A stretch of 64,000 bases of DNA, from NCBI GenBank assembly GCA_002245135.1, contig NGBS01000603.1, forward strand, positions 1 through 64,000. The letters are read 5' to 3'. The notes beneath the pieces were generated by a model, which had not been told where the DNA came from, did not search any database, and saw only the letters and a program-made list of their open reading frames with translations. The stretch comes from Proteromonas lacertae (Eukaryota). Both the position numbers and the translations under genes were made by a program. Positions within the stretch are counted from its first letter, which is position 1. Each line of letters begins with the position of its first letter. Shown here one piece after another: positions 1 to 37,498 of this stretch.

Positions 1-1188
1 AGCAAGAGTTACATCCAGTTCTACGTTGACTATTACGGTAACAATGGAAAAACTATGGAACCTGATATTAAGAATGCTGATAAGTCAGGGGATTGGAAGT
101 TCTTTTACGATACTTACGTGTTATCCAACTCTTATAACTTAACCGAGATCAAGGTCTACAACTCCAATGGAGTTCAGTTACTGTATGCAGATCATCAGTA
201 TGAGTTGTTCCGACAAATGATGGTTCAAGTGGCAAGGAAGAACATTGATAAGTATAATCAGAAGGTTTACTTTGATGGTTGCTATGCCGAGGAAAGCAAA
301 GACACTGAGGACTATGAAGTCATGGAGTTTAAAGTAGAAGAATTAAAGGACGGGCATTACCGACGTCTAGTAAAGATCTTCCTTGGAGAGCTCTTCAATA
401 CAATACTTAGTTCAGCAACAGATGTCTTCTTCTCGGAGAAGCTATTCATCACTTTGAGATTCGGTAAGGCTGATGGTTTCTACAACCCTAAGGAAAGTAA
501 GAGTACTAAGTTCAATGAGATGAAGGATAGCACAGCTAAGGATATGACCGATCCAGTAAAAGCAAAGATGATAGAACCCAAGGTAAAAGTTAGCCTAGAC
601 AACTTCTACTTCTACGTGAAGGTTAACAAGGATCCAGCCTGTAATGACAACACGATCAAGTATTGCCTTAACAAGACAATTGACTTCAATGACTTCCATT
701 GCTTTACTGTCACTAGCAGCTCCGGCATGGACTTCTTTCGATATACCTTTACCTTGAATAGTAGTCTCGGTAAGTACATCAAGTTCATTGCCTATCGTCC
801 TTATGATGGGAACGACAAGATCCAGAAGCTAGATAAGCAAAGTACTAAGTTCAGATGGCTTATCAATGACTTCCAATACAACCCAGACTTTGTTAACCTC
901 AAGGACTATGATAACTACCACATGATAAAGCCTTTGCTAGCCTGTAGCTGGCACGATCAGTACAACTACGTTCAGGAGGAAGATAAGTTCATCGAGGTAC
1001 TCAACTTTAGTAACTTTGGCTTATTCGATCTCCAAAATAGACAAGGCAAGAGAATGGATCAAGATATTAAGTTTACCTTTGAGATGTACTCCGACACCCT
1101 CAAGACCGAGAACATCTTCCATCGCTTCTACGTGGTCACTGGCCGAGGAGCTACTGTCAATGAAAGTGGTATCGTGAACATCATCTAA
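1..1188 (+). CDS. Putative double-jelly-roll major capsid protein, 5'-partial
   Basis: Frame is open from nt 1 (SKSYIQFYVDY... precedes the Met at 55). Motif order resembles Polinton/PLV MCPs: LTEIKVYNSNGVQL, VKIFLGELFNTIL, KLFITLRF, VSLDNFYFYV, IKFIAYRP, FRWLINDFQY, FGLFDL, DIKFTFEM, C-terminal FYVVTGRGATVNESGIVNII. Confidence 0.6.
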   Translation, partial: SKSYIQFYVDYYGNNGKTMEPDIKNADKSGDWKFFYDTYVLSNSYNLTEIKVYNSNGVQLLYADHQYELFRQMMVQVARKNIDKYNQKVYFDGCYAEESKDTEDYEVMEFKVEELKDGHYRRLVKIFLGELFNTILSSATDVFFSEKLFITLRFGKADGFYNPKESKSTKFNEMKDSTAKDMTDPVKAKMIEPKVKVSLDNFYFYVKVNKDPACNDNTIKYCLNKTIDFNDFHCFTVTSSSGMDFFRYTFTLNSSLGKYIKFIAYRPYDGNDKIQKLDKQSTKFRWLINDFQYNPDFVNLKDYDNYHMIKPLLACSWHDQYNYVQEEDKFIEVLNFSNFGLFDLQNRQGKRMDQDIKFTFEMYSDTLKTENIFHRFYVVTGRGATVNESGIVNII

Positions 1189-1615
1189 AGGACGATGATC
1201 GGAGAGATCACCTCATACTTGGGATAGATGATATCGATGGAAGGAGTTCTCTTGATTGTGAGCTGATGGTTCTTTACCCACAAGACAACTTCCTTATAAG
1301 TGCAGTCCTTATCTATCCCGTGTAGATCTTTGACTTGCTTAACGTTATCGGGAGAGGCTGGTAAAGCAACATTGTACTTTGCCTGAATCTTGCATTGCTT
1401 CTCGCAATCATTAGCATCTGGTTCTTCAACTCCTCGGAGATGTTCCTCCAGCACTTGAGCTCTCCATTGTTGAATCGTAGGAAGGTAACATTCAGGAGCT
1501 GGATGATGAAGTTCTTGTCAGTCTCAATGATCTGGTGAATCGTTCCTCGGAGTTGTACTTGCCATTGAAGTGCATAAGGAACACTTACAAAGATGTTATT
1601 ATCGGTGCTATCCAT
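1185..1615 (-). CDS. Hypothetical protein of the viral-like element, about 143 aa, split by one frameshift near 1454
   Basis: ORFs 1313-1615 and 1185-1454 join as ...FNNGELK/VLEEHLRG... if one base is restored; its stop overlaps the capsid-like ORF stop at 1185-1188. Confidence 0.55.
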
Positions 1616-1686
1616 AGACGATTGAACCCAATATCAAAAGTTAATGATAATCAGTAAAGCCTTAAGAAGAAGTTAAGTACTAGGAA

Positions 1687-1753
1687 TTAAGCCGATGTTG
1701 AAGTCATTGAAATAGCTGCTGGTTGCTCAGGGTTCTGAGGAGTCTCTTGAGGC

Positions 1754-1787
<34 letters not shown>

Positions 1788-2613
1788 GAACTCCTTGAGG
1801 TGCAACTACTTGAGTAGGAGTAGGAGTAGGAATAACTACTTGAGGAATCATCCCTTGAGGGAACTGAGGTTGTGGAGGCTGATAAGCATTCATGGAGATG
1901 TCCTTGATCTCGTAATGAGGAAAGATACGTACAGGTTGAATAAAGTTACCTCCTGTTGTAGTTCCATCGCTAGACACTTCCTTACCGGGATAGATAACTG
2001 CATCCTTGATCACTAGCAAGAACATGAAGACTTTACCGACGTTACTATAGATGTTCTGCTTAAAGGCCAAGAGCTTCTTGTTGCTTCTCTTCCAGAGAGT
2101 TGCATTGAGAGTACCTGATCGAGGAGTTGAAACATAGGTGGTGTTGGTGATCTGAAGATGCTTAGGGAAGGTTGGATCTTGTTGAGTTGCCATAGCCACG
2201 TTGTATCGTAAGCTCTTGATAAACATCTCGGTGTTGTTGGAGTCAATGAAGAAGGACATCACCCTGGTAACATTCAACTGGAGGTAGTAGTTGGTATCAT
2301 ACTCGGAGATCTTTTCAACCATGGCTTCAACATAGAAGTGTACTTGATCTTGCTTAAGGAAGTAGTGCCAGTACTTACCACAGATACGGAGCTGGGGCTT
2401 CTCAGGTTGTAATTGTCGTTGTTGCTGGGCAGCTCCGGGAAATGCAAAGGAATTTGAAGGAGCCGATGGAGACATCATCATCACTGGCTGGGATATCACG
2501 GGTTGATTCATCATTGGTAAGACTGAAGCTGGATTGAAAGAAGGAGCTGTCATAGGAGCAGGCATTGCTGGGTAAGGAACTTGTTGCATAGCTGGTTGAT
2601 TGAAAGAGTTCAT
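1687..2613 (-). CDS. Hypothetical protein of the viral-like element: P/Q/M-rich termini around a roughly 170-aa globular core
   Basis: 308-aa intronless ORF with the same codon bias as its neighbours; poly-Gln tract. Confidence 0.7.
1755..1788. repeat. (TTG/CAA)n microsatellite encoding poly-Gln
   Basis: Run of tgttgttgt... seen directly. Confidence 0.9.
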
Positions 2614-2668
2614 AGGAAACGATAAAGTAGTGAAAGATAAGATCGACCAAGAAATATATGACTGAAGT

Positions 2669-2879
2669 GAACCTAAGAAGGAACCTGAGAAGAAACCTTC
2701 AAAGGGATCGTAGAACCATCCTAGTCTTTACAATTGGTTTCCACGGTTCTGTAGATGAACTTTTCTTTGAAAGAGTTCTTCTCGTAGAATACTCCTTGAA
2801 GATCATCCTGTAAGAGATCTTCCCGTAGGGAAAGTAGACCCCGTTGAGAAGTAGACCCTGTTAGGAGGAATCCCGTAGG
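2669..2879. repeat. Subterminal short direct repeats
   Basis: GAACCT(A/G)AGAAG at 2669 and 2681 with a partial third copy; AAGTAGACCC at 2832 and 2849; TCCCGTAGG at 2821 and 2871. Confidence 0.8.
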
Positions 2880-2888
2880 AACCTTACG

Positions 2889-3090
2889 TAAATGGGACTA
2901 TGGTACATTATGCCAGAGTTCTAACGAGTGTTCTAGGAGTCCGTCCCCTTCTAGATTCAGAGTTGACCTTTACGGGAGCTTCATCGATGCAATCGATGAA
3001 GCTCCCGTAAAAGTCAACTCTGAATCTAGAAAGGGACGGACCCTAGAAAACTCGTTAGGACTCTGGCATAATGTGCCAGAGTCCCATTTA
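2889..3090. repeat. 202-bp imperfect inverted repeat (hairpin)
   Basis: Arms 2889-2988 and 2992-3090, loop GCA; manual alignment gives 6 mismatches and 1 indel. Confidence 0.97.
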
Positions 3091-3184
3091 TATACTATAT
3101 ATAAAAAGTGTTATAAAAGAAAATGAATGTTCAAACTCGTTTGACATTTTAAAACCAAAAATCAAATTTACTCAATATATTGTG

Positions 3185-5041
3185 ATGTTTGTGATTTATT
3201 ACAAGATTATATTTCCTTTGTTTTTTGTTTATTTTATTTCTGTGGTTGTTTGTTTAAGAATAAGTGATGTAGAAAGAAAAGAGTATGAAGCAGGAGAGAG
3301 AGTATATTTTTCTATTTGTTATTGATAGATTGATATATGTGCTAGTAGATTTATATCTGCTAAAACTAGAATGCCAATGAGGCACTATTTTCTTCCCGTG
3401 AGTTGTTTGGAAGTTAAATGGTGTTTATACAATTTGTTTTTATCTAAATATTATGATAGAACTTATTCCTGTGAGTTCAATATGTTGAGAAGTAAAAATT
3501 TTATAGTGGGAAGTTTTTATATATCAAACATTGGATATGCAGAACACTTGCGTAGATTAATAAAAAATGATAATGATATTATTTTAATAAAAGAATTTAT
3601 TGGAGTGGAAAGACTATCCTTAATAAATTCAATTAAAAATGATAAAGATTATTATTATGAGAATGGATATATATTTGGTAAATATGATAATAGAAACTAT
3701 TATATACAGAATCATTTATCATTTATAATAAAATATGAAAAGATTAAAGAAAAAGAAAATCATTATAGAATAATGGAAATAGAAATAAAACCATCAACAA
3801 TGAATAATAATGTAAGTGTATGTGATAAAAATACATTTAAATACTACATTGATGAAGATGATACTAAAACATCGCTGATGATTTTTCATACTTACAGTGT
3901 TGAATATATAGAAGAATCAAATATAAGAAATGATGTAAATATAAGCATGAATGTTGAAACAGTTAAACCTAATTGGTTTAAATTTGGTTTATCAATGATA
4001 ATAACTGTGATAATAAACACTGTAATTGGTTTAATAATCTTTCGAAGAGTAGTTGAAAATATTTCAAGATATAATATTCATAATTTTGGTAGTTATTATT
4101 ACAATAGTAATTATAGGGGAAAAGATGATGATTTAGAAGAAGAAAGTGGTTGGAAATTACTTCAAAAAGATGTATTTCGTCCTCCACTAAATCATCCAAA
4201 GTCATTTACAATAATCGTATCATCAGGTAGATCAATGTTCTATACAGCCTTTCTTTGCTTTTTTATAATCTATTTGCGAAATTATTTTACTCAGTTTATA
4301 GACATATTTTATTTCTATATATCTCTTCAATGTATCGAAGGATCCACTAAATATTCAATTTATTCATACAAATCATGTGGAGGTAATAGTGTAAAGAGTT
4401 TGATAAAATACATATTATATTACATTCTTTCTATTATAATAATTATATTTTCATTTAGTTATTTAATCTCTTATAAAGTACTTTTAGAAGATTTTGGATT
4501 AACATTGTTATGGTTATTTACATATATAGTTGTTGTAATTTTATTTACAAAAGCTGGAACATTTATTGGATTTAATCAAAAAATATATAAAGAATTTGTA
4601 ATTAACCAAATACCTCGTGAAATTAAACCACAACCATGGTATAGAAAAACAATTCCATCAATGTTATTATCTGGATTATTACCATTTATTGAATTTATGA
4701 TGAATTATCATTTCTTCATTAATTCCAATTATCCTCAAAAACAATATGTACATTTTTTACTTTTCATGATATATACAATGAGTTTGATTTGTTCTTGTGA
4801 AATGTGTTTGATTTTTTGTTATTATCAATTAAATGGAGAAGATTGGAATTGGTGGTGGAGATCCTTCTATACAGGTGGTTCAATATCGATATATATGTTA
4901 ATATATACATTATTATATGGAATTGAAAATTTATCATTAATGTGGTTTTTCTATATTATATTATTTCTAATCAATGGTTCAATGGGATTCTATTCGTGTA
5001 TGTGGTTTATTGTAAAGATATATTCTTCTATTCAAATTTGA
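3185..5041 (+). CDS. Transmembrane 9 superfamily (EMP70/TM9SF) protein
   Basis: Signal peptide, KEYEAGE, intron 3302-3328, EESGWKLLQKDVFRPP, NQIPREI, LSGLLPF, EDWNWWWRSF, KIYSSI. Confidence 0.93.
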
Positions 5042-5344
5042 CATATATATAATAATTGTAAATATAATGAATATATGTTTGTTAAAAGTCCTTATCTGTA
5101 TATTAATGTTTTAAACACTTTTTAAAATCTTTCAAACAGGTTCTAGTATATTTCACAAATATATGTGTATAACCATCATAATATCTATCATCGCATAAAG
5201 CTATTTCTCTTTCGCCATCTTCTTAATTATCAACTATATGTAGAATTGATTTAAGTTTGCAGTTATATTTTATATTTTCAAAAGTAAAGAAAATTCTGAA
5301 AAATTACTAATCTCATTCAACAACTAAAGACAAGCAAATAATAT

Positions 5345-7477
5345 TTATTTTATTAAATTGTGATGAGAAACTGATTGTAGTTCAAGTGAAATATTTTCAT
5401 GAAATAATACAGCATATGGATATAATGGAGAAGGTAAATCTTTAACAAGTAAAACAGGAGATGAATTATTATGACTTATCCAAAATTCTCTTTTATTCAT
5501 ATCAACTATCACTTCATAAATTGAACCATCTCCACAATCATTGAAATTTAGATTTGAATTAACAACTCTTCCAATATGACAAAATTTATTAATATCTTCA
5601 CTTTTACCATTCCATGCATAATAATTACATGTTGTTGATTGATATAAAATATAATTACCAGAATATATATTATCAGTTGATAATCCTAACGTCATTCCAT
5701 CACCTTCACTTACATTTTGATAAAATTTATATTTGATATGATAAACTCCATTTTCCATTTTCAAATTCAAATAACAATGATTATAACCATAATATGAATT
5801 ACTTATTAATTTTCCATTATTTGATATTGATATTCCATCACTTTTGTTTAATTCTGTGAACTTTATATCAATAAATTCCAATGATATTTTGAATTTCTTT
5901 TCACTTAGAATATTCTTACAACTTATTTCATATTCTCTCTTTTCGATTTCTTTATTCACTTTTCCATGAATTATTCCATTTTCTTTATCTATCATTATTC
6001 CATCTGGCAATGATGGATTAATTGAAAATTCACATCGATTTCCATCAAATGAAGGAATTATTGACATTTCTTCATCTAATATATATGAATATTCTGATTG
6101 AGGATATGAAAATGATGTGATTTCTTTTGTTTTTAATTTTTTCAATAATTCTTTATCTTTCATTATTTCTATCATTTCTTCTTCTTCTTTGAAACTCAAT
6201 TTCATATTCTGAATATATTCCATTAATAATTCTTTAGATTTGGAGTTTAAATAATCATCTTCATTTAATATTCTAAAAAGAATTTCTTTTCCACATACTT
6301 CTTCTATTATTAAAACACTCTTTTTATCATCAACAAATAAACATAAACATTTCATTGTTCGATTTCTTTTATTCTCATTATATTCTATACATAATCTTTC
6401 CAATAGATTTCTCTTTTCTGTATTTGAGATATATTCTATTTAAATATATTTTTAGTATTTATACTTTCCATCTTCGCATTCTTATATTTCATTATCATCA
6501 ATACTATCTCGATCATTTTTATATTATTCATTTCTAATATACACATTATTTCATCATTCAATTCTTCTTCTTTCATTCTATCCAATATTCTTCTTTCTTT
6601 TTCATTAAAGACTTCTTCATCTTTATCTTCATTGTAATTGTTGATTATTACATTTTGAATTCTCTCATCTTTTATTAAATATATTTCTATATGATTTTTA
6701 CATTCATTTTTCTTTAATTCTATTTTCATTTCTTTCAACATTTCTTTATTCTCTTTTTCTATCTCTTTCTCTTTTATCTTTTCATAATCGATATCTTCTT
6801 CTATCAATTGTTTAAAATCATCTTGTATCTCTTTATTATCAGATTTATTCTTTTGGAATTTATACCATTCGAATAACCGATTTAATAACCATAACTCATT
6901 CACTATTATCACATCTTTCATATTTAATATCTCAATCAAATTATTCATTTCTAATCTCAACAAATATTCATTCTTATATAAATATTTATATCCTCGCTTT
7001 TCTATTTCCATATTTTTCAATTCTTCTATCTCTCTCAAACATCCACCAAATACATTACATATATGAATTAATTTCATTAATACTTCATCATCTATATTAT
7101 TCTTCATAAATTCATAACAATCATTTATTATCTCTTTTTCACAATAACATAAACAAAACATCAACACTTCACATACACTCTCTTTACAGATTATCAATTC
7201 ACCACCACTGTAGTATTTCTCCATCTCATAATATCCAATTTCTTCGATTTCTTCATATAACTCCAAAACTCCAACAAACTCACTATCTAACAACAGTTTC
7301 TTTACAGTCTCATTTCCATTCACTAGAATTGACTTGATTGACATTATTCGGCTATCTCTAATCTTCACTTCTATATCACTAAAACCACTTTCGACCAATT
7401 TTCGACATAATCTATCATAAAAATAAATATATATAATACCCATATTCTCTTATGCTTTTATTCACTTTTCTTATCAT
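5345..7477 (-). CDS. BTB/BACK-like + putative Ig (He_PIG) + SPRY-like domain protein
   Basis: GFSDIEVKI BTB start, IIVNELWLLNRLFEW BACK-like, FSINPSLPDGIMIDKENGIIHG Ig motif, VIVDMNKREF...LYPYAVL SPRY-like; introns near 7411-7438 and 6436-6464. Confidence 0.75.
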
Positions 7478-7829: not shown

Positions 7830-10800
7830 TTAATACCTGTTATTTAAATATGGACATTCTTCCATATGTTTTTTAAAAGCTTTCTTCTCTTCAACAATCT
7901 TGCAGTATTTGTATTTCAAATCTTCTATTTCGTCAAAAAAATTAGAATCAAATGCACTTAACTCATTTCTTAATTGCATATTCACTATCTTTTCATCTTC
8001 CAACTTCTTTTTCAATACTTTGATCTCTTCATTCTTATCTTTTTTCATATTCTCTAATTCATTTTCTAATCGGCTCATTTCCTTTGCATTACTATATTAT
8101 AATGCAAAAATATATTATTATATACACAGCAAGAGGAGGTTCTTTCTTTAATATTTCTATCTGCTTATTTGCATCACTTAATGCATTTTCTAATTCTCTA
8201 AGTCTACTGGCTCTTTCTCCTGAGCTTCTAAAATACATAAATGCATATTATATTATATTATACCTTTCTGATTTATTCTTCATAATTATATTATTAGCTT
8301 CTTCTAATTCATTTTCTAATGAGCTTATTTTTCTCTTCAATGAAATATTATCTGATTCTAATAACAATAACTGCTTTTGTTTTTCTTTTACTTGATTCTC
8401 TGTATCTACCATTACATTTTGTTTCTTTTGTTGTATGTATTTACCACTTTGTTTTGAAGCTAACTGATTCTATGCAATTATTATATATATATATTTATTT
8501 ATTTATATATACTCTTAATTCATCCATTTCTTTCAGATATTGATTATTTAATCGTTTCTGTTCTTTTAAGTCATTTTTCACTTTCATATACTATTGAAAC
8601 ATTAGGTTATATATTATTATTTATACTTCTATGTTAGTAATACTGTTATTCTTCAATCTTTCTATTTCTATTTTCTGTTTTTCAATTACAGTTTTTAATC
8701 CATCAATTACACTTTCATAATCTCTTTCTCGTTTAAATCTTTCTCCAGGTTTTCTATCAGTCTATTTTATATAATAATAATAATAATAATACAATTGGAC
8801 TATCTCTTCCAACTACAGTTTTGTATTGTTCTAAATCAGCTATTCTTCTTCTTAATGAATTAATTTCAGACTATTTTGTTATTATATTTTGATAATAATT
8901 ATACCATCGAAGATTCAGCTTGGAATTTCAGTTCAAGATTCTCATTCTCCAGTTCCATTACTCGATTCAAAGTATTTTCAAGCTTTTCACTAAGTATTAT
9001 ATTCTATATAATAATAATAATAATAGAATATAAATATACCCTATCTTCTCCACTATATGGAGCAACTTTTCCACCAGTCGATGTTTCACCAATTTCTTTC
9101 CTCAATCTTTCATTATCACTAGTCAAACGATCAACATCATTCTGAAGTAAATTAATTTTGTATTTCAATTTGGTTATATTCTGTTCTTGATCAACTTCAA
9201 CTTGCCTTTTTAATTTGTTATTCTCTTCTTCTAGTCGGAATATTTCATTCTTATATTCTTGAACTCTTTCATATTCTTTCAATAAGTCTTCTTTTGTCAT
9301 TTCAGAATTTATATCTTTCTTCTTTTTCATAGTTCTATCACCTTGTAGTTGTTTATTTCTTCTTCTTTCTTCATCTAAATTCTTTTCAACAACATCTAAC
9401 TGTTGTTTTATTTCAGTAAACTTCTGTGTTAATATATCATATTTCTTTGTTATTTTGTTCAATTCACTTTTTGTTCTTTTTAATTCAATTTCTTGATTTT
9501 TGTATAACGATTCATATCTATTTGGAGATATATTCGTTTTCTCTTCAGATCTCGATGGTGGTTCTGGTAATGCTGGAGATTCTTGTATTGGAACAGCTTG
9601 AATAGATTCTAATGCTTTGTTGGCTATTGTCAATTTCTTTATTTCTTTTTGTAGTTTGAGTATTTGTAGATCTTTTGCATTATCTTCCTTTTCTTCATTC
9701 ATTGTTTTTCTTTTTGATTGTAATAGTTCTTTTTCTATTTTTTTCGTTTTTCCAATTATTTCTGATTTTTGATCTTCAATTCTTTGTATTTCTTGTCTTA
9801 AATTATCTCTTTCATTCCTATAATCATCTACTTCCTTATGAAGATTATCAACATCACTCTATTGTTATTATTATATAAATTAATATATAATATTTAATAC
9901 TTGTAGTTTTTTAATCTCTTCATCACTTTCATTCTTCACTTGTTTGACTTTATCTTTTACAGTTTTTAGTTTGTTTTTAAGTGACTTTACTTCATTTTGA
10001 AGGTTGTTGTTTTCTTCTTGAACTTGGATTGTTCTTTTATCAACTTCTCTATCAACATTACTTTCTAAATCACTTATCTTTTTCTATTCAAATAAATATA
10101 ATAATAACAAAATACCTTATTATCTTCATTTATTACTTTTAATTCCATCACTTTCTTCTCCAATTTCGCTAATTTTGTTTTATAATCATTTTCTACTTCA
10201 TTTAATGTTCTATGTATCTTTTCAGGTTTAAATTTCTTTGTAGATGAATTCATTGCATCTAATCTATCTAATTTCTCTTGTAATTCATCTACACGAATAT
10301 GTAATTGTTTATATTGTTCTTCAAATCGATCTCTTTCATTTTGAGCATGATCCAACTAAATAATCAATAATGAATTATAATAAATATACTTGTTGTTCTA
10401 AATGATTTATTACATTTCTTGATTTAGCCAACTCATCTTCACTCATTTGACATCTATCCAATAATTGTTCATTTATCTCTTGTATTTTCTGTATAGTTAG
10501 TGCTTGTTTAGTGGGAGAATTATTATTTGGCCCATTTAATAAATTGTCATGTAATCTTTCAATTTCTGCATTTTTATCTTCAATTATTTTCTTATATTTC
10601 TCATCATATTGTTTTCTGATCTTTTCTCTTTCTCCTGTTAAATTATTTCTCATGTCTTCGATTTGTTGTTCATACTGTTCAATCACTTTTTGTTTTTCTT
10701 CAATAATTGCCTAATAACAATAATAAAAACAATAACATGATAAAAATATATATACTTTTGTTTGTTCTATAGTTTGTTTCGCTAAATGATTATCATTATT

Positions 10801-12843
10801 ATGATTATTAATCTCTTGAGCCAGTTTATTCTGCAATTCTTCCAATTTACGATTCTTTAATCTGATTTGTTCTTTTCTATCATCATCATCATCATCATCA
10901 TCATTTCCTATTCCATTGATCTTCATTCTTTCTCTTTGGCTTTCAATTTCTAATTCTTTATATCTTATTTCATTCTTTAAAATCTTTATTTGATTCTATA
11001 TGTATAAAAATAAACATTATATATACATTCAATTCTTCATTCTCATTCTTAAACTTCACCAATTCTTGTAGTGTCTTTGCATCATTGTTATTATCTCCAC
11101 CATTTCCACCATTATTGTTACTGTTTTGTGTCTGGTTAAACATCATTTGTTGATCTTCATAATCAACATCCATTTGATTATTCTCTTTATAAGACTTAAT
11201 ACGATTCTATTTATTAATATATTATTAATACATTTATTAATTCCATTAAACTTTCTATATCTTTACTATCAGTCTTCTTACTCTCATTCTCTAATAAATG
11301 ACTGAATTGTTCATCTGTTAACTCACTTTCCAATAAAATAATGTATTTCTATAAAATAGTAAATGATAACTATACATTTTTATTAGTCAATTCTGCTTCT
11401 AATATCTTCAATTGTGAATCTTTCCTATTATTATCAGCTTCACACAATTTCAACTGTTTTCTCTCATTGTATTCAGCTAAACGAACTTCTAATAACTTCT
11501 GATTGGTTAATTGGACTTTATTCCATAATTCTAAATGATTATTATTTAACGGATTCTTTTCTAAATCTGCTTTAAACTGTTCTACATCTTCTTTAACATT
11601 CTCTAATGATTCATTTCTTATTTTTAACCTTTCTGCTTCACTTTCTGTTGCTATTAATTGTTGTTCCATTGATTCTACTTTCTTGGATAATTCATTATTA
11701 CTTCTTTTCAGTGTTTGTATATCATTTAATATTGTTTTTATTATACTATTTCCTTTTCCTTGTTCTAATAGCAAAATATACTCTTTCATTGCTTGCATTT
11801 CCTTCTTATAATCTTGCTATTCAATAAATACATAAATACAATAATAATAATACAGTAATTTTCATGTATTTTTCTTTCAGTTTATCACAGGCTCGATCTA
11901 AGGTTTGAATAGTAATTTCTTTTTGTTTCAAATCATTCACCAAGTTGGTTTTGTACTTCTCCAATTGTTGATAATTTGTCTTGTAATTGTATAATTGTTC
12001 ATGTAACTTGGCTATAATAGCTGTATCATTTGTCCTACTCATTGCATTGTCAATCTTCTCTTGTAGTAGTCTCAATACTTCCTGTTTATCTTTTTGTGCA
12101 AGTTGTTCAATTGTTTGTTCAATTACTTCAGGTTGTGTCTCAATATCAGCATAAGTATCAGTCATTGACTATATAAATAATAAATTAATAATAATACTTT
12201 AATCTTCTCAAGTTGTGCTTCTCTTATACAATTAGTAGAATTATATAAATTCAATAATATATTATATGATTCTGTAGCATGTTTTAGTTTTATCTCCAAT
12301 TCATTATTTGTATTTTTAATCTGTTTTAATTCATCTAATAACTCATTATATTGAGTAGTTTGATGTTCATATTCACTATTCAGTCGATTATAATCGTCAG
12401 CTGTGTTTGAAAGTGATATTTGTTTTTCCAAATCTTTAATTTTACTCCTTAAGTCATTATTCTGTAGTGTTTGTGCATTTAAATCTCTTTGAAGTTTATC
12501 AATATCATCATTTAACTTTCTCTTTATTTCTTCATACATTTGCTTATATTGATTCTAAATATAACCCAATATATAATAAAAAATATATACGTTACTACTA
12601 TCTCTGATTACTGCTATTGCTTCATCAGCTGTTATTCCTTTTTCTTTGAGAATTGATTTATTGATTTCATCTTTAGATTTCAATTCATGATTCTTTTGTT
12701 CAATATCTTGTTTCTGCAAATTATTGATTCTTTTCAATTCTGAATTCTCTCTTCTCAATTGGTTCAATTCATCTTGTTTAGTCAAAACATCAGTTGTTTC
12801 AAGTATTTGGATTAAAAACTGTTTATCAAACATTGAATCATTC

Positions 12844-12890
<47 letters not shown>

Positions 12891-15569
12891 TACATCTTTT
12901 GGTCTATGTTTCAAGTATTCTTTCATAATATTATCTTGTGTTTCAATCGTATACATTGCTCCTTTCTTCCACAGTTCTAAATATAATACTCTATACTTCA
13001 ATGTAGTCTCAATATTCACTAATCGATAGTTCAACTTATTATTCTCATCCTCCAATTGATTACATTGTATTTTATAGTATCTCTTCTCTCTGTCTAATTT
13101 CAATTTATCTACCTCTGAAGCTGCATGTTCTAATATTAACCTATTCTTATCACTATGTGGATCATTCACATCTAATCTCTTCTTATATTCATTATTGGCT
13201 GTCTCAAACTCCTGAAGTTCATTTTGTAGCTTTTCAATCATTTTGTCTTTCTCTTCAATTGTTTCATTGTATGATTTTACTTTTTTATGATATTCTTCAT
13301 ATAATTGATATTGTATATCTAAAAATTGAGTTATATTCTTTGCATATTGTTTCAAATTATTGGATATTTCATCCAAATCAACATCTTGTGCATATAATTC
13401 TTCAACTGTATATAATAATAAACCATAAATATTAATCAATTCATCTTGAATCTCAGGTGGATATGATGATATCAAGTTCTTATACTCTTCAAAGAATCTT
13501 ATTCCACTTAATCCTTCAGGATTCAATCCATTTGGATCAATTGTTATACCAATTTGTTGGTTTTGTAAATTGTTATTATTATTCGATGGACTTAATAATC
13601 CTTGTCTTGAGCCAGGACTGAATAGTGATCTTCTACTACCATAACCTGCTTTATATAACATTGATTGACGTGGATTCATTGGAGCTGTATTATCAAGTAT
13701 TTCTTCTTCTATTTCATCTAATCTTCTCATCTATATATTTATATATTTAAATTATTATTATACGATTTCTGAATTATCTGCATTACCACCTCCTTGCATT
13801 GGTATTGTAACTGTAGGTGTATTATTCACTTTATCTTTTAACTCTTGAATTAGATTAATCAAACTGTCATATTTCTCATTTGAAATATTATCATTATTTG
13901 TATTGTTATTTAACATACTGTTTCTTAACTTATCTAATTTCTCTTCATAGTCATTTCGTATATTACTTATTTCACTATCATATTCTCTTTTCTGTTTGTG
14001 TAATTCATTCTTTAATCTTTGTATTTCTTCTTCACTTTCTGCTAATCTTTCTTTATATTCCAATGGACCAAGTAATTCATCATTATTTAATAATGCTTCA
14101 ATAAATGCTAAGACCTTATTGATATTTTGATAACTTAGTTTTGGTAAATCTGGATTATTATAGCCCAAATATTGACAAGCTCTATTTCATAGTAATATAG
14201 GAAATTAATATATACTCTAACACAGCTTGTAATCTCTTATTCTCTTCTTCTAGGTTATTACAGTAAGCAGCTAAATCTACACCTGGTTTTAGTAGATTAA
14301 CATCATTCACATTACTACCTTTAAAGTTATTAAACTCATCAATTGGAATGTTATATTTCTTATGTAAATATTCAATATATTCTCTTAAATGACCATAGAA
14401 TTTATCATTTACTTGTTTATCTTCTTCTAGTCTCTATTCATTATTAATAATATATTAAAATACTCTTATTTCTAACTGCAAGTTGTTATTCTCTTCAATA
14501 GCACGTTGTAATCCATCTTCCTTAATATCTCCATTGTATATCTTTTCCAACATCTCCTTCTCATTCGTTACTTCACTCAATTCATTCTCTAATTGTTCAA
14601 TATTACTTCTTAGTATCACAATCTCACCTGGAGCAGCTGTTCTAACTATACCTGGAGGTGGTTGTCCTCCTTTTTGACCTGGACGAAGTGAATTCTTCTC
14701 TCTATCCACCCATTCTACCACTAACTTTGCATCTTCTTTGTATTGGTCGATTTGTCTTTTGTATTTTTCTATTTCATTTTTTAATCTTTCATTCTCTTCC
14801 TGGTATATATTTGTCACTGGAGCTGCTCTTGAACTTTCTGTACTACTTTCTAAACCACTTTCGTTTAATTTTTCTAAGTTCTTTTCTTTTTCTAATCTTA
14901 ATTCATTTTCTAATACTTTTATTTGATCATCCATTTTATTGATCTCCTCTTTAAATTTTCCCATTTCTAACTTATCATTATCGATTTCCTGCAATAATAG
15001 GTAATTTTCGTTTTCTATTTCCTGAAAATGTTTTTCTTTTTCTCTCTCATCTCTTATGGTTTGTTGAAGTTCGCCTACATTTCGTTCTAATTGACTAATT
15101 TTCTCATCTTTTTCTTTTAACTGTTCTTTCATCACTTCATTGTCGCTTTGGATTGTAGATGATTGTTGTGATAATTCTTTCAATAGATTATCTTTTATTT
15201 CATATTTTTTCTTTAATTCTTCACTTAATCTCAGAATAGCTTCATATTCTTTTAATAAGGAAGTATATTTAGCTTTAGGTACAACAGTTGGATCTTCGGC
15301 CTTATTTTTTGATCCTTGTTGTTGAACCATTTCCTGTAATTTTTGATTTGTCTATTGAATAAAGTAAACCAAAAATAATACTTCGAGCAATAACATCTTA
15401 CTTCTATTTTCTTGCTGTAGCTGGTCTTCGATTTCTTGAACTCTTCTCTGTAAACGATCAACCTCCATTTTCTTCTCATTATACTCAGAAGTTAACCGAT
15501 CGATTTCTCTCTTCTGATATTCACTATATAGAAATTATAGATATCATAGAAAGCTTACAATTGACTCAT
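7830..15569 (-). CDS. CEP290: CEP290-like centrosomal/transition-zone coiled-coil protein, many exons
   Basis: Chain of coiled-coil exons separated by tiny introns; C-terminal LSAFDSNFFDEIEDLKYKY matches the conserved CEP290 tail motif. Confidence 0.8.
12844..12890. repeat. (TAA)n microsatellite inside an intron
   Basis: About 15 TAA units between the minus-strand GT and AG. Confidence 0.9.
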
Positions 15570-15672
15570 TTTTAAATCAACTTTTGAATCAGAAACGAAT
15601 ATAAATTTTAAAACTTATTGTGACAAATTTACACTGGTAAATTACCTTAGAAAAAGTTTAGAAATTTTTTGA

Positions 15673-17431
15673 ATGATTGGACTGTTTTCAGCTGCTTCAC
15701 TCATTAGAAGGAATCACACATTTGAAGACCCTGAATTTGAACCATTTTACAATTCCTTGACTGCAGCAGAGTCAGCCATTAAGTACATCCATACTAGGTT
15801 GATTTTATAGGTTTTTGTACAAATCAGCTGAAGAATTTTCAAGTTCAGTAGATCAATTTTCACGACAATTTGAAAATTACTATAAGAATTCAGAAATCTT
15901 TTATTCTTTATTTCAACCAGGTTCAGAATTATACGATGATGTAGCAAGATATCAGCAAGCTAGTAAATACATAAACTTAAAGCATCCAACACTTGTCGTA
16001 TGATTAAATCAAAATATGATGTTTAGAAATCTACAATCGATGAAGAATTACTCATAGAAGCTGATATAAAACTCAAGCAATGTCAAACACTACTTCAAAA
16101 TATTGAAAATAGAGATGATCTATATAAAAAGACAAAATTAGTATAAATGACATATCTAACATATTGTAATAGTTAGAAGATCAATTAGCTTTATTAATGG
16201 AAGCAAGTACAGAAGAAGAAAGGATTAAAACTCTGTCAGTTCAAGTATCAGATTTAAAAAATCAACTGGAACAAAGCACGAATATACTAAAAAATGAATT
16301 AACAGTCTATGAATCAACTTTAACAGAATCATTTGGAAAATTATTCCATATGTATCGAGATTGTCAAATTAATTACTTCCGTACTGGTCATCTTAGTTTT
16401 GAAGAGTCTAATGCAGAACCAATACTTTCATCGAGAACAATAGATAGACATCAAACTGTATATATAATTAAAAATATTGTTTTTATTTTTTACTAGTTAT
16501 CAATAAGTAATAGTTTACTTGAAATTGGTGCTGGAAAATCACACAACTTATCAATTGATATGAAGAAAGATGAAAGTTTAACATGGAAATTCAGAACTGA
16601 AGCAAAAGATATTGGATTTCAAGTTGATTTTAAGAAGAATAATGAACCTTCAATTCCTTGTCAAGTAATATTCCCATATCAGCGATTAGAAGCAGATAAG
16701 GAAACACAAATGTATATACAATTATATATTATTATATTATATTATTATATTGATAGTGGCACATTTACTGCAGATAGTGATGGTAGATTAATTTTAAATT
16801 TTGATAATAAATATTCTTACTTTAGATCTAAAGTGGTTGGTTATATATATGGTCCAACTGGATCTGATTTTGATCAATATATTGAAGAGAATATAAATGA
16901 ATTATCTGATTTAATTATTAGTCTATCTGATACACATGTCAAGAAAGAAGAAGAAGAAGAAGAAGTAATAGAAGAAGAGGAAAAGAAAGAAGAAAAGGAA
17001 GAAGAAAATAATGATGATGAAGGAATGACAAGACAAAATGCAGTAATGACTGAAGTTGAAACAGAAGAAGAAACAATCATGTTTAATAAACAACAGCCAG
17101 TAGAACAACCGCAAGAAAAAGCCCAGTAGAACAATCACAACAACAACCTCAAGAACAACCACAACCAGAATCTGTTAATGATAACAATGAAGAAGCAGCA
17201 CCACCACTACCATCATCAACTAATGAAGAAAGTGAAGTAAATAATAATACTGATATTGTTAATGAAGGAGAATCAAATAATAATGATAATGAAGAAAATA
17301 CTGGAGGAAAAAAAAACGAAGAAAAAGAAAAGGAGGTAGAAAATGATCAACAAGGTGATAACAATCATAATGATGATAATGGATGGGAAGGTATACCTTT
17401 ATATTATTAATTTCTAGAATTTGATAGTTAA
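15673..17431 (+). CDS. GOLD-domain protein with helical N-terminus and acidic tail
   Basis: LTWKFRTEAKDIGF...GRLILNFDNKYSYFRSKVV is the GOLD signature; several introns; probable frameshift near 17125. Confidence 0.8.
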
Positions 17432-21465: not shown

Positions 21466-23432
21466 TCAATTTAATAATGAATTTATGGATCTCTTCTTCA
21501 TTTTTGGCCAATCAGGATTAATCAACTCCAATTCAGGTAAATCAGTATAATCTATTTCAATATCAGGATAATTACTAATAGTTTTAGTAAAATTCTCTTT
21601 TGAATAGCATTTTTCACAATAATCATTAACATTAAACTTATATTTAGCTATACAATAACAGGCATGTTTACATGGTATTCCAAAGTATCTATACTCACCA
21701 CAATTACAATATTTTTTCTTCAAATCAGTAATATAATTCACAACTTTCTTTGTATTCTTTGTTGTCTCATTTACTTCATATTTTCCTTCACTTATTTTCT
21801 TTGCTGTTAATCCAACATTATCATTACTGTTTTCACATATTTTATTATATATTTTATCATTAACTTGATGTTCCCATGAATTCATAATTTTTTCTCTTTC
21901 CCTTTCATTTTCAGTGACAAATCTGTGAATAAACAATGGAATTAAAGGAATAAAAACATATGGAATCTTTCCTAACAAAGTATTAAATTCTGATACTAAT
22001 TTATTACCTAAATTTCCATATAGTTTATGTTTAATTTCAAATCTTCGCCATGGTCCTTCTATTCCTTTTAAATAATTCAATAAACAAGTGTTTATATGAT
22101 TTGAATTATATTTTTTCTTTTCTAAGTCTTCAATCATTCTATCATATTCATCTTTTGTTTTACATTTCCCTAATTCAACTATTTTATCAAATGTTGAGGT
22201 ATTTGTATCATTTGAATTAATAATACTTTGACCAACTGAAGTTATTGTTGTTGTTGTTGTTGTTGTTGTTGTGGTAGAAGATGTCATATTTGAATTACTA
22301 AATAGTTTATTCTTAAAATCTGAAGCAACACAGCATAAAGAATGAATATGTTCAACTGTTGGATAAACTGATTTTATTGCTTCATTTACACCATTATTAT
22401 AATCACTACAAAATGCAAATTTATCCTCATCATCCCCATCTTCTTCATTATCATCATCATCTTCTTCAGTTTCCATTTTTTCAACGACTGGTGGTGGTGG
22501 AGGTGTTGGTTGTTCTAAAGCATTGGTATTATCTTTTTTTGATCTACCTCCCTTTGTTCTATTATTACTAGGAAGAGATGATGAAGCAGAAGAAGAAGAT
22601 TCTACAATTGGCAATGGAATAGCATTTGTATCTTCAGTTCTTTGTGGATATTCCAATCCTTTGTATTTCAAAAACTTAATAAATTCTCTCCAATTTTCTA
22701 CGTTTTCTTTTTCACAGATACTATATCCTAATAAACAGATTTTATTACATCCATCAATCACTAATGCACACAATAAAACTCCACCTAAACTACTTCTTAA
22801 TTCATAAGATGATAAATAGATTATTTTTTGATATAAATTTAAGTCTTTTAATACATTTTCATACACTGCAAAGAAACTGATGAATCTGTTTTTATCTGTT
22901 TTAATGTGGTATTGGAAAGATGGACATGTAAACTGTATTTTACTCAATAATGATCTTAACTTACTAAATTGTTTTTCATCACTTCCAAAACAAATATCAA
23001 TAATTCTTCTTTTATAATAAGAAGCAGTTGTTTCTGTCATTCCTTTCTTTGTCTCAGCTTTTACAATTCGAATTAATCTAGATGGAGGTAAATAGGGTTC
23101 TTTAATGAGAACTGGTATTAAAATTTTGTAAATTTGTTTTGGAGTCAATAGTGGTCTTGCTTTCTTAGGTGGATCACCAATATCTAAGGATTTTTACATA
23201 TTTATAACGATACGAGTATGATTCTAGAAAAACTTTCTTTAATTTTATTGAGCCATCAATTTGCAAACGTCCTCTCAAGAATACTTTGCAATCCTTCCAT
23301 ATACATTCAAAATTATAGTATTGTCCAGTCCTGAACGAATGTAATTTTGATCCATCTATCTTTTCATATTCATGAACTGACTCTTTAAAGTCTTCATAAG
23401 AAGCAAATTTCGTACCTACTTTAAGATCCATA
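21466..23432 (-). CDS. MuDR/MULE transposase-derived protein with SWIM zinc finger
   Basis: LKVGTKFASYEDFK MuDR N-domain, GGVLLCALVIDGCN, EKENVENWREF, FCSD, CNCGEYRYFGIPCKHA SWIM; intron near 23185-23214 plus a 1-nt frameshift near 23220. Confidence 0.88.
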
Positions 23433-28009: not shown

Positions 28010-30349
28010 ATGTCTTTTTCTGCACAAGGAGACTCTAATTTACAAGGTATATCACCGAATATATCAATAAATCAGACAAATACCTATTTGTCAGAACAAG
28101 TCCAAAATAATACTAATAAGTATATCATTAAATGTATTTAATGTTGTATAATATAGTTTAAATGATAAAAATGTTGTTAATCAACCTAAATCTTCACAGA
28201 CTGTAGCAAGATCCATTAAATAGAAGAGAAAATTGGTCTACTCATTTAGCTCCAGATGGTAGAGAATATTACTACAATTCTGTAGATTTACTAGTTTCTC
28301 TAATTTCTCTAGGTTACTAATACTAGTACATTTGACAAACCTGACTGTCTAAAAAGTGAAGAAGAAAGAGCATTAAAATGTGATTGGAAAGAGTATTTAG
28401 CAGATGGAAAGAAATATTGGTATAATCACATAACCAATCAATCAGTATGGGATAAACCAGGTATTATTATTATTATTATTATGTATATAGCTGAATATCA
28501 AGATTATGAAAACAAATTAAAAGCAATATTAGAAAGAGAAAAACAAAGAGAAATGAGTAATAAAAATATAGAAAATAGTAATAATGTTGATAGTAATAAT
28601 AATAATAATGTATAATATATATATATATATATATATAATTTAATATTAGATAAATGAAAATGTACTTATTCCACAAACAATATCTACAACAACAACAACA
28701 ACAAATATAAAAATTGTTAATACCATACCAACATCATCAAATAATATTAATTCAACAATCACACCAAAATCGAAAGTTCCAGTTTATAAATCAGAATCAG
28801 ATGCAAAACAAGTATTCTTTGATTTATTAGATGAAAGTAAAGTGACTAGTAAAACACCTTGGGCTGAGATTGTTAAAATTGTTTCCAATGATATTAGATG
28901 GCAATCTTTATCAACTGTTGGACAAAGAAAACAAGCTTGGAGTATATATACATATAATAATATATAATAATTGTATTTGTTTATTATAATATTTATTTAG
29001 GTGAATGGGTTAATAAAGCAGCAAAACGTGAAGAAGAAGAAGCAAGATTAAGATATGAAAAGAGTATAGATGATTATAATGAATTATTAAAAAGAACAAC
29101 AGAAATTACATCAGATAGTACATGGGGTGAAGTTAAAGTTATACTTGAACACTGTCCAGAGTATCTTTTTTAATTTTTTTATAATAAATACAAATAGATA
29201 TTCAGCTTTAAACAATGAGAAAAAAAGAAGAGATTTATATTTCGATTATATTCACGAATTAGAGAAAAAAGAACAGAGAAGAAAGAAGGCAGAGAAAGAA
29301 TACGAATATTGCTGCATTAAAAGAAATATTAAAGACAAAGACTTACACCAGCAGAACAAAATATGATAAAATTAAAGAAGATTTAAGGGATGAAAAATGT
29401 TGGATTGTATATTTTATTATATTATATTATTTGTAAATAGGACTTAGATCGAGATGATAAACATAAAATATATTCAGATTATATAAAATCCAAAATAGAC
29501 GAAGAAAAAGCGATTCAAAAACAAATTATTACAGAATGTGAAGAAGAACTAACCAAAGCTAATATTCAAATTAATAGATGAAGTGAAAATATGTAGTTCT
29601 ACAAGATGGAAAGATATCAAATCAACAATCTCTCAATATCCATTTTATAAGAAGTTAAAATCAATAGATGTAAGTTGTCATGATTTGTATGATAATATAT
29701 TACGTAAATATAAACGAATATTGAGAGATCCGCTTGATATAATATCGAAATTTATAAAAGAGAAAGAGATTGTTTTTACTGAAGATTTGACTTATGATTT
29801 TATATCAAATTCAATAAATGAAAAGTGCTGAAGAAGGTGAAAAGATTAAAGAAATGAATAATAAAGATAATACAATGTTGAAAAGATCATTTTATGAATT
29901 ACTATATGTTGTATATATATATATATATTATACATATATAGTATCGATATGAAAAAGAAAAAGATAGAAAGAAGTTTTTCTCATTATTAAAAGAGTATTA
30001 TTATAAAGAAAAACATTTAGGAATAACGTATGATCAAGCCAAAGAGAAATTAGCAGGTAAAAGTGATTGGGAAAGAATAATGTCACCAGAAGAAAGACAG
30101 GAATTATTTAATGATTATATGACTAAATTGGAGAAGAAGATAAAAAGTAAAAAAGAGGAGGAAAATAAAGAAGACAAAAAGGATGATAGTAAAGTAATGG
30201 AGGAAGAAGAAAAGAAAGAAGAAGAAAATAATGTAAATGATGATGATACAAAGACAGAAACAGGAGAAGCTATAAAGAGAAAACTTGAAGATAGTGATGA
30301 TGCTGAAAAAGTAGTGAAAAAGGTAGAAACTGATGTTAATGCTCAATAG
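28010..30349 (+). CDS. PRP40: PRP40-like splicing factor (WW and FF domains)
   Basis: WSTHLAPDGREYYYN and WKEYLADGKKYWYN WW domains followed by FF repeats (ERQELFNDY). Confidence 0.85.
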
Positions 30350-30434
30350 TAAATAGTTTTTTCAATTTTTGTTATTATTTTCGATATTTTTTGAAACACC
30401 AAATTCAAAATTATTCTTTTCTTCTCAAAATTCA

Positions 30435-31411
30435 ATGAAATTTAACAAGTTATCAGATTTATTATCAGCCTTTTACAAAATTCACCCATTGTGTGATGTA
30501 TCGGTATAAAAACTATCTCACCTTAGTCACCTCAGTCTTTAGAATTTCATAAGAGACTTGTATTAATTCAAAATTATGCTTTAGTTTGATATGGCTAGTG
30601 ATGTAAAACGTAGATGTCTTTTTATGGGTGCGCCAGGAGCTGGTAAAGGAACCTACGGCAAAATAATGAGTCCTTTATTAAATGTTGAGAATATTGCAAT
30701 AGGTGATATTATTAGATCAGAAATTAAGAATAAAACAGATGATGGAATGAAGTGTAAGGTATTAGACATAAATTTATCTGACATTCATATTAATAGATGT
30801 ACAGTGATAAAGGTGAGTTAGTTCCTGATGAAATAGTTAATCATATGGTATTTCATGTTCTTTCACAGCCGAAATACTCTCATGGTTATATTTTAGATGG
30901 TTTTCCTAGAAATATTGATCAAGCTAAAGCACTACAACAACAATCAAAAATTGATTTAGCAATTCATTTCAATCTTCCTGATGATGTTTTAATTGGCAAA
31001 TTATTGGGCAGAAGAATGTGTTCTGAATGTGGTCATGGTTATAATGTGTGTAATATCGATCGTATTTATATAATCTATTTATTCATGTTTGTGTTATAGA
31101 AGATGGAATAAAAGATGGAGCCAATTTTGCCTAAACATGAAGGAATATGTGATTTATGTGGTGGAAAATTAATAAAAAGAAAAGACGATACATATGAAAC
31201 AATTAAAAATAGATTAGAAGTGTATAAGAAGAATACATTTCCATTAATTGAGTATTATAACAACCAAGGAGTATTGTTTGAATTTGAAGTAAAATTGGGA
31301 ATAAAGGATATGTGTAGATGTGCAGATGTTATTGCCTTAAAATTATTTAATAATTATTTTAATCAGAATAAAGAAAAAGTCAATTCTGAATTTAAAGATT
31401 TAGTTTCTTAA
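30435..31411 (+). CDS. ADK: Adenylate kinase with N-terminal extension (possible organellar presequence)
   Basis: GAPGAGKGT, GYILDGFPR, Cys-containing lid, RKDDT. Confidence 0.93.
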
Positions 31412-31554
31412 GTGTTTTGTTGCTTATTTATTATTTTTTAATTCTATTTTGTTTTTTAAAGAGGTAAATTTATAAATAAGTCATAACAATATTCTAATGT
31501 AAGTAAATGTATCTAATTACTATTATAAATGTGTAATTATTATTATTTGGACTA

Positions 31555-33641
31555 TTATAGACGTGTAGGAGCAGGAAATAAAGTCGCTAATTTTTCAACA
31601 AGAGCTTCAGTATCTAATATAATAATAACAAACAATAAAAATATACTTCTGTCACCAATATTTTGGTCAATTACTGACATTATAATACAAAGTCCTTGAT
31701 AAATACTTAAAGGATGCTAAATAAATAATATTAAATATATGTATACTTTTAAGTCAAAAATAAATGAATCATCACCAGTTCTTCCAAACTGCAAAACTGT
31801 TTCATTTCCAAATGGCTATTGAAATAATAATAATAATAGTATATTATATAATATATATACTACTTGTAACAATTGAAAATTCTTTGTAGATGGTTTTGTT
31901 ACTCTACCACCGAACGGCATAATATGTCCATGATGCTCAGGCGACCAAACTGGTTTCTATTATAGAATAAATAAATATATAATAAATATATACTCTTGAT
32001 CTTAATATAATAAAATCATTATAATGATCATTACATATTCTAGTATACAATGTTCCACTACTTGTATCTGTTATTTTTTCTGATATATCATCTACTACAT
32101 TTGGTAATACTGCAAATATATCAGGTGGACTATCATTTGGTGAACTATACAAAAATAAAATAAATATATAATATACTTATAAAACACAATTCCCATTTCA
32201 TCTCTCACTAATTCTTTTTGATCTGTCCTTGTAGGATTTTTACCATTACTATATATTGAATAATATGTAGGATTCTAAATAAATAATTATTATTGATAAG
32301 ATATTATATACAACATGTAATCTCACTTTACCTAAATGATAATGTGGTTCAACAAAATCACTATCTGACATTGACACTGCATAATAGGATGTTTTTGAAT
32401 TGATATTCTTTTTACAAGATAATAAGTAAGTATGATCATGTGGATAATCTAAACTAACATGATATACATTACCACTCATATGCTTCTCTCGACTAATACA
32501 ACACTATTTAATAAATAAATAAATAAATAAATATGTAAATATATACTTTGAGTATAGCTGTATTAGATGGTAAAGGATTTAATATATATTCTCTTAGTGT
32601 TTCAATGTTATTATCTTTGAGAGGAAATGGTATTCTTCTTCCTTGTTCATCGTATTCATGATGTTCTTTACTTTTACTACCACTGGCATCACCACCACCA
32701 TCAGATACAGCACCACCTTTCTTCTTTATATTAATCATTTCAATCATTTTAAACATATCCATTTCAACATCCTCTAATTCTTCTAATTCTTCTTTTTTTC
32801 TTTCTTCTTCTGCTTCAGCCATGTCTTCATCTAACATCCTTTCAGCTGCTTTTAATTCTTCTAATGTAATTGGCATCATATATCTTGCATAATTTTCAGC
32901 TGAACAGGATAATGATCGTTTTGTATGAATAGTGAATGGTGAATCAACATCAACAGTTGGTGTAGTTGGTGGATTTAACATATTATTTATGTTATTGTTG
33001 TTATTATTACGTGGAGTAGTAGGTGAAGGGGGACAGAATATACCTGAGTCTGATCTAAGAAATGAAGATGATTTACTTTCAGAGATATTTTGTGAAATAG
33101 ATTGACTACTAGATCTCTGCATATTGACTAGTTTACGATGACTCATTGTAGGAGTGAATTTGAGATGATATGATGAGTTAAAAGAAGGAGATTCTACTCT
33201 ATAGTTTGGACGCTTTCTTGGACTTACTCTTGGTGGTGTTTTAGGTCTACTTGGAGTAATAGGGAGTTCTTCTTTCTCTTCTCTTGGTGAGGAATGAGTA
33301 TTAACATCTTGTTTTGAATCTCCACAATCATTATTGTCAAAATCATCTAAATTAAAAGGACATGGTAGTGAATCATCCTCCAAATAATCTAACTCAGAAT
33401 TGTGTTCAGAGAGATTATCTTCTTTATACAGCGGGGGAGAGTCTAATCCATCATTGGGAACTAGTTTTATAAAATATGAAAAAATAATACTGACCACTTT
33501 TAATGGATTATCTATTGAGCTTTTACAACTTTCAGATTGTACATAGCTCTTTTTACTTTCAAATGTCAACGAAAACTTCGTATTATTTTCATCCCTTTTA
33601 GCTCTATACTATATTTTACAATAATCATACTCGTTTAGCAT
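31555..33641 (-). CDS. Tubby-domain protein
   Basis: YLLSCKK, HLGKVR, FGGRVTKPSTKNFQL, LQFGR, FIFDFKHPLSIYQG. Confidence 0.88.
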
Positions 33642-34155
33642 ATTTGAAAATTTTCAAAAAAAAAATGTTTCAAGCATCTTCCAAGCTTTTCAAAAAACTT
33701 AACATCTACAATTGTCAGAGTAACAGGAATTGTTTATATTTATATCTTCTGCTATTTAATGTGCATGGTTAAAAAATGTAGTGAATACATCGTTATAAAG
33801 ACATTTAATAATATTAATATTCAAAGCCGGTATTTTATTAGTTCATTTCATCATATATTAGGTATATATTCAGAAAATAATATTTAAAAAAATGTATATA
33901 AATGGACTTTCATTAAAGTCACTTTAAACCAGCCAATATTGTAATAATATATCTTAGAAGGTAATATTCGATCAAGATATTAATTTAATGAGAATATCTC
34001 AATAATGTAAATTTTGATTTTCAGATTAAGTCTAGTTTTAACATTTTTTCCTTCATAGAACAGTAATATTTGTTATTCAATTAACATATTGTCCATTCAT
34101 CTGCCTTCAATGAGTTTGCTGTTCATTCTTAGCTTGGCTTGATCAAACGTAAATA

Positions 34156-36075: not shown

Positions 36076-36114
<39 letters not shown>

Positions 36115-37351: not shown

Positions 37352-37498
37352 ATAATTAAATTTTGGTTAGATTAATACGTGTATTATTATTATAGTAATT
37401 AATAATTATTGTTGTTTTTTAAATCACTTACAAAAATCAAAAATTAATATTCATACTGTTTTTATAAAATAAATAAATTCAATAATATACAACTTTAC

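Follow-up and report, generated by a model that had tools for sequence, protein, structure and literature searches.

What kind of virus left a capsid-like gene at the edge of a protist contig, and how did its genome end? The DNA analysed here, a stretch of 64 kb that we call the window, opens with a long reading frame that the preliminary description took for a divergent double-jelly-roll (DJR) major capsid protein (MCP) of the Polinton or Polinton-like virus (PLV) kind. Our best reading, which we consider reasonably probable, is that bases 1-3090 are the right end of a Polinton-like virus that is integrated in a protist chromosome and carries a self-priming terminal hairpin. The identification of the capsid is itself ordinary, and the hairpin is the more interesting part. 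Table 1 gives the features of the locus.

Table 1. Features of the putative viral element and of the adjoining host DNA, in window coordinates
Feature	Position	Strand	Detail or basis
Candidate major capsid gene	1..1188	+	Open frame, predicted DJR fold, Foldseek and VIA matches, alignment to relatives
Two overlapping small frames	1185..1615	-	1615-1313 (100 aa) and open frame 1517-1185 (110 codons)
308-aa ORF of the element (ORF2)	1687..2613	-	Core of about 180 residues flanked by Pro/Gln-rich tails
Subterminal non-coding stretch	2614..2888		41.5% GC; six frames without codon signal
202-nt terminal hairpin	2889..3090		Arms 2889-2988 and 2992-3090, 3-nt loop GCA
Element/host DNA junction	3085..3091		GC changepoint; 42.2% GC to the left, 23.6% for 3091-3370
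EMP70/TM9SF endomembrane protein, first host gene past the junction	3371..5041	+	PF02990, E 2.7e-73; GC3 0.17

Is the first protein a capsid? Its frame is free of stops from base 1 in the ORF listing, and the stop codon at 1186-1188 closes a run of 395 codons. The AlphaFold2 model, built on a 30-sequence alignment (pLDDT 75.6, pTM 0.79), has two strand-rich halves separated by a helix at residues 212-224, where the preliminary description had expected a helical linker between two rolls. In a structural search of 48,161 solved chains, rows 1-16 were all viral DJR proteins and the score dropped to 6.4 at row 17. The best match was a PBCV-1 capsid chain (Z 19.7, rmsd 4.4, 325 residues aligned), with further Z scores of 18.2 for EhV-201, 18.0 for faustovirus, 17.4 for Sputnik, 15.9 for ASFV p72, 15.1 for mavirus, 15.0 for the Orf virus scaffold, 11.9 for PRD1 and 7.7 for phiCjT23. 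Model residues 1-395 align with the capsids of PBCV-1, faustovirus, Sputnik, ASFV, mavirus, PRD1 and STIV at Z 10.9-19.7. Foldseek gave best E values of 1.7e-8 in PDB and 2.7e-10 in BFVD. Among the language-model look-alikes of the Atlas, the protein scored 0.96 to viral capsid clusters, with a recognition value of 1648, which is below the level for a strong score. No confident match to a cellular family was found in searches of Pfam, NCBIfam and PHROGs. The fold searches and the look-alikes thus bear out the two tandem jelly rolls first proposed from strand patterns, and the protein is almost certainly a DJR capsid. It would trimerise into the capsomers of an icosahedral shell, as all of its structural matches do. 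A single jelly roll of the parvovirus or bidnavirus type was also considered and is ruled out by the double-jelly-roll structural matches.

The order of ten strand motifs had been the basis of the original call. All ten are present in the order given, at residues 49, 125, 148, 197, 260, 286, 339, 356, 376 and 386, and nine of them overlap modelled strands, but FGLFDL (339-344) is coil in the model. In the family alignment, nine of the ten lie at a mean column identity of 0.36-0.70 against a protein average of 0.32, and FGLFDL falls below that average at 0.23. The frame had also been called intact. This holds for the 395 visible codons only, because about 60 N-terminal residues fall beyond the window edge. 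The ORF is open at its 5' end, and its residue 1 pairs with residue 60-63 of full-length relatives in the alignment. Judged from this pairing, roll 1 begins with strands that lie beyond the window, as does the start codon, and the ATG found at base 55 is probably an internal one. Matches to the capsids of eukaryotic viruses begin at target residue 64-102, with the N-terminal part of the first barrel again beyond the window.

Which group of viruses does the fold point to? Sequence identity to the structural matches is 4-13%, and the fold therefore cannot choose between a giant virus, a virophage and a PLV. Matches to giant-virus capsids are at least as good as those to virophage capsids. Sequence comparison with solved structures gave no match for the virophage capsid family, and the structural Z scores of Sputnik and mavirus are in the same range as those of giant-virus capsids.

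Where does the element end? Bases 1-3090 are 42.2% GC, against 26.6% for the remainder of the window. The best GC changepoint is at 3085 and the next best are at 3084-3088, so that the outer base of the hairpin coincides with the step to within 5 bases. The four element frames have a GC fraction of 0.43-0.59 at third codon positions, against 0.12-0.23 in six host ORFs. ORF2 shares the codon use of the capsid gene (log-RSCU 0.14 in frame vs -0.05 to 0.00 in the five other frames). It has no homologue and no Atlas match, its model (pLDDT 41) is unusable, and a fold search gave nothing meaningful. The two small minus-strand frames (GC3 0.59 and 0.51) gave no meaningful family match in Pfam, PHROGs or NCBIfam, and the stop of the second overlaps the capsid stop (TAG/TAA). 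There is a weak indication that the codon signal passes, near 1450-1480, out of the frame that begins at 1615 and into the one that ends at 1185. Either two genes overlap in this region, or a single gene is interrupted there by a frame break; such a break, if real, would hint at some decay or at an assembly error. The subterminal stretch folds no better than shuffles (z -0.53) and would likely hold the ORF2 promoter and the inner part of any terminal inverted repeat. No replication, packaging, penton or integration gene was recognised in 1-3090, with the rest of the element beyond the window, and PLV membership must therefore be judged from the capsid. The PLV feature in view is a DJR major capsid gene inside a compositionally distinct insert.

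The DNA past the junction is that of an AT-rich eukaryote with exon-sized ORFs and with EMP70, tubulin and DUF4200 genes. The EMP70 ORF begins 280 bases beyond the outer base of the hairpin. The tubulin gene lies at 37499-38842 and the DUF4200 protein at 39004-40365, both on the minus strand. We take DUF4200 to be a marker of cilia-associated, CFAP100-type proteins, and its presence therefore suggests a flagellated host. The host DNA as a whole is compatible with a flagellated stramenopile. Other host ORFs were noted in passing. A row of exon-sized coiled-coil ORFs at 7830-16496 (minus), with weak Pfam matches only, is probably one long multi-exon gene, and adjoining ORFs at 5345-7443 (minus) have weak BACK and putative Ig-domain matches, both under the Pfam cut-off. 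The minus strand at 21466-23148 encodes 560 aa in a single frame, including a SWIM zinc finger (E 4e-6); this ORF is presumably derived from a MULE transposase, to judge from how it reads. The 869-aa frame at 34156-36765 (plus), which has a signal-peptide-like start and terminal teneurin-type EGF repeats, is likely a surface protein, and the ORF at 45212-46099 (plus) is a cysteine-rich repeat with recurring CxC...C motifs. By reading, 49895-50533 (plus) resembles a bacterial-type amidohydrolase and 61976-62434 (minus) a histidine kinase/receiver protein. Finally, the segments 55334-55815 and 57196-57678 are duplicates, 73-75% alike and 1.86 kb apart, and are likely tandem paralogues; the ORF that contains the first is membrane-transporter-like and resembles a Na+/H+ exchanger.

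We consider it very probable that the element is truly integrated. The suggestion in the preliminary description that the integration is recent agrees with the abrupt change in GC and with frames that are open. A single sequencing run is listed for the capsid stretch (share 0.05), with no RNA run listed, and one contig of that run, 173 nt long, is identical to 587-759 with no differing letter. The same run has no other match on 1-6000, and on 30000-49999 it has only a 41-nt match at chance level. The contigs of such a run show presence and not absence, and the run therefore says nothing about integration.

The end of the element is a long, imperfect palindrome that abuts host DNA; one end is visible in the window. 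The arms are 100 and 99 nt long, with six mismatches (at 2900, 2904, 2920, 2930, 2948 and 2968) and one bulged base at 2938. The folding energy is -104.7 kcal/mol (z -25.9), and none of 200 shuffles was as stable. Pairing ends at the outer limits of the stem and does not extend past them. There is no second hairpin of this kind elsewhere in the 64-kb window, the pattern of the hairpin tip does not occur in JGI metagenomes or IMG/VR, and Rfam has no match in 1-4000. A Helitron-type end was tried as an explanation and ruled out: Helitron 3' hairpins are short, and the stem here is 100 bp.

How might such an end work? We propose that a linear genome integrated while its terminal hairpin was opened out into a palindrome, which would explain why the outer base of the stem is where host DNA begins. 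Once the element is excised, its final 99 bases would pair with the preceding 100 and leave a 3' end pointing into the genome. If this fold-back end primes synthesis, no protein primer or terminal protein would be needed. That the hairpin is the native end of the virus seems probable to us. That it also primes replication is a more tentative claim, to which we give slightly less than an even chance.

Are the mismatches part of the viral end, or have they arisen by decay since insertion? We simulated decay by taking the differences between the arms (6 substitutions and 1 indel over 199 bases) as the neutral rate after insertion (4,000 runs). At this rate about 2.8 stops and 13 frameshifts are expected in the two large ORFs together. 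No stop arose in either ORF in 10% of the runs, and neither a stop nor a frameshift in 0.125%. The latter figure hangs on the single bulge, which may be a sequencing error; with substitutions alone, P is 0.10. Moreover, the longest perfect run in the stem is 20 bp, shorter than under random placement of the differences (p 0.046, marginal and post hoc). Since the simulation and the even spacing both point the same way, we are inclined to regard the mismatches as part of the viral end rather than as decay, although a frame break in the small minus-strand frames, if real, would speak against this.

These considerations bear directly on the strongest competing explanation, which we regard as unlikely though it is the most serious of those weighed here. 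The element could be an ordinary PLV that is bounded by terminal inverted repeats and replicated by protein priming, with the hairpin a one-off product of fold-back repair at insertion, or of terminal repeats placed head to head by a circular or tandem form. Accidental annealing is indeed offered as an alternative in a passage of bioRxiv 10.64898/2026.07.28.741278, entomopoxvirus-associated PLVs are described with paired inverted repeats beside a tyrosine recombinase (PMC11296320), and the hairpin is present as a single copy within the window. However, a fresh fold-back would leave identical arms, and seven differences accompanied by two open ORFs are unlikely to be later decay. A head-to-head junction, for its part, would require that the second repeat was cut precisely where its inner edge lies.

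As a second alternative, the hairpin might be an independent miniature transposon of the fold-back type, 198 bp long and flanked by a TA target duplication, that lies at the end of the viral stretch by chance; we hold this to be distinctly improbable. The palindrome does start and end with TA, and the host has DNA-transposon-like genes, the SWIM-domain ORF being one. However, the GC content of the hairpin (45.5%) is like that of the element and not like that of the host, and its position is exactly on the junction, with no second copy in 64 kb. A terminal hairpin that belongs to an integrated PLV remains the reading that we prefer.

We give an equally small chance to an assembly artefact, in which host DNA and the end of a free or co-sampled virus were joined during assembly. 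Palindromes are a source of trouble for assemblers, and the junction is known from the assembled contig alone. Yet the junction is sharp to the base where the stem ends, and a capsid family that is likely the same is reported 285 times in one protist assembly, with copies of the cluster at internal contig positions up to about 166 kb (PMC10120064). Integration of a PLV accounts for the locus in our preferred reading, and it is to this capsid family that we now turn.

Bellas et al. 2023 (PMC10120064) list, under 'Iterative HMM searches' in their Table S4, those 285 matches of one Proteromonas lacertae MCP cluster. Table S3 prints 400 of the 450 residues of a P. lacertae capsid, and Dataset S1 lists five loci of the cluster. 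According to the same report, the cluster was reached by iterative searches seeded with PLV and virophage capsids, and its capsid, which had no HHpred match, was called by ColabFold and Foldseek with a PBCV-1 chain as the best match. By eye, the window protein and the printed one share the blocks NLSKxY, DxFFxE, FTxNSSxG, WxINDF and ExLNF in the same order and spacing, although the window sequence is not the one printed. Formal membership of the cluster would call for 25% identity or more to its members across 30% of the length; the link drawn here is a judgement by eye. On that basis, the window capsid likely belongs to the P. lacertae MCP cluster, and the window copy may or may not be among the 285 counted. 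Because it appears to be of the same family, the capsid is probably not a new capsid group. The PLV or Polinton label of the preliminary description cannot be read from the fold, but it gains support from this likely membership, since the cluster is treated as PLV-type in PMC10120064 and its elements are labelled PLVs in bioRxiv 10.64898/2026.07.28.741278. Most likely, then, the family is a known but barely described PLV-type cluster. The literature that we covered, mostly outside subscription journals, held no account of the gene content or termini of Proteromonas-type elements.

Does the family extend beyond one protist genome? Pfam, PHROGs, NCBIfam, PDB sequences and INPHARED had nothing useful for the capsid ORF. 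A word-indexed protein search found no matches with the single protein, and with a profile only two members that were already known. An exhaustive search of 1.84 billion representatives, by contrast, found 16 relatives at E <=0.001 (best 2e-60). The clusters of these representatives list 39 proteins, all of them from Logan assemblies only and without names, and all 39 match the window capsid by BLASTP, with 27-35% identity over long alignments. Related loci were found neither in IMG/VR nor in JGI metagenomes or GTDB, and the 64-kb window has no second member of the family. The longest Logan contig with a capsid relative is 7,818 bases and several are near 4.3-4.5 kb; short Logan contigs are the rule, and the lack of any above 7.8 kb therefore proves nothing about genome size. 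These unnamed proteins show that a cluster so far reported from a single protist genome is represented by diverse relatives in public sequencing data.

No more than 1.9 kb separates the capsid gene from the end of the element, which is atypical for the core capsid gene of a giant virus. An integrated giant virus (Nucleocytoviricota) with a mismatched hairpin telomere of poxvirus or asfarvirus type is the least probable explanation of all, even though PBCV-1, EhV, faustovirus and ASFV capsids head the fold matches, the Atlas neighbours are mostly Nucleocytoviricota and vaccinia hairpins are mismatched (PMC8956199), because none of the 14 members scanned (of 40 sequences) matches a Pfam capsid family at E up to 1, Capsid_NCLDV and Capsid_N included, full-length members measure 417-514 aa vs more than 600 aa for the egovirus capsids in the tree of 10.1101/2024.03.23.586382, and the Proteromonas cluster was found from PLV seeds (PMC10120064).

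A bolder possibility, which we hold to be unlikely, is that the family is a separate lineage of small DJR viruses of gut flagellates. Their genomes would possibly be below 10 kb and lack a protein-primed polymerase, and they would replicate by a rolling hairpin from long, deliberately mismatched flip/flop ends, in the manner of parvoviruses or poxviruses. The short distance of the capsid gene from the end, and the Logan contigs of at most 7.8 kb with the reservation already made about them, are what suggests this possibility.

How does a PLV with a terminal hairpin compare with known systems? As in Polintons/Mavericks and PLVs (Preplasmiviricota), a DJR capsid gene sits in an intron-free, compositionally distinct insert. 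The difference is the hairpin end, which argues for a primer other than a protein. The replication mode of most Polinton-like viruses is described as an open question (bioRxiv 10.64898/2026.07.28.741278). Long imperfect hairpins at genome ends are familiar from the flip/flop telomeres of poxviruses, and in vaccinia the mismatches are needed for assembly (PMC8956199). This likeness is an analogy only, and the hairpin in the window differs in its 45.5% GC and in lying unfolded in a host chromosome. The terminal hairpins of parvoviruses, which bioRxiv 10.64898/2026.07.28.741278 also brings up, are again long and imperfect, and again offer an analogy only.

A further comparison is with a virus of a gut stramenopile, the MELD virus of Blastocystis. 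Its virion proteins are likewise unrecognisable by sequence, but it has pPolB and an integrase (PMC8502044). Nearly all flagellar genes are reported as lost in Blastocystis (PMC12129017), and Table S1 of PMC10120064 gives no MCP count in any of its 10 Blastocystis rows.

The closest parallel is found in Halocafeteria seosinensis, where terminal palindromes beside target-site duplications are described for virophage subtypes 1, 2, 5 and 6 and for PLV subtype 4 (bioRxiv 10.64898/2026.07.28.741278). There, as here, integrated DJR-capsid elements have a palindrome at their very end, and the palindromes are linked to non-pPolB replication genes, with a proposed role in priming. The two cases also differ. 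The sole length given in the accessible text of that preprint is 52 nt vs the 202 nt, with mismatches and a bulge, found here; the Halocafeteria PLV capsids cluster apart from the Proteromonas capsids; and the Halocafeteria elements are GC-poorer than their host, whereas the element in the window is GC-richer. Hairpin priming has so far been proposed from short palindromes in one host, and the element described here comes from a different capsid group. Its 202-nt mismatched hairpin offers a sharp test of hairpin priming: independent copies should share the mismatches and occur in two reverse-complement forms.
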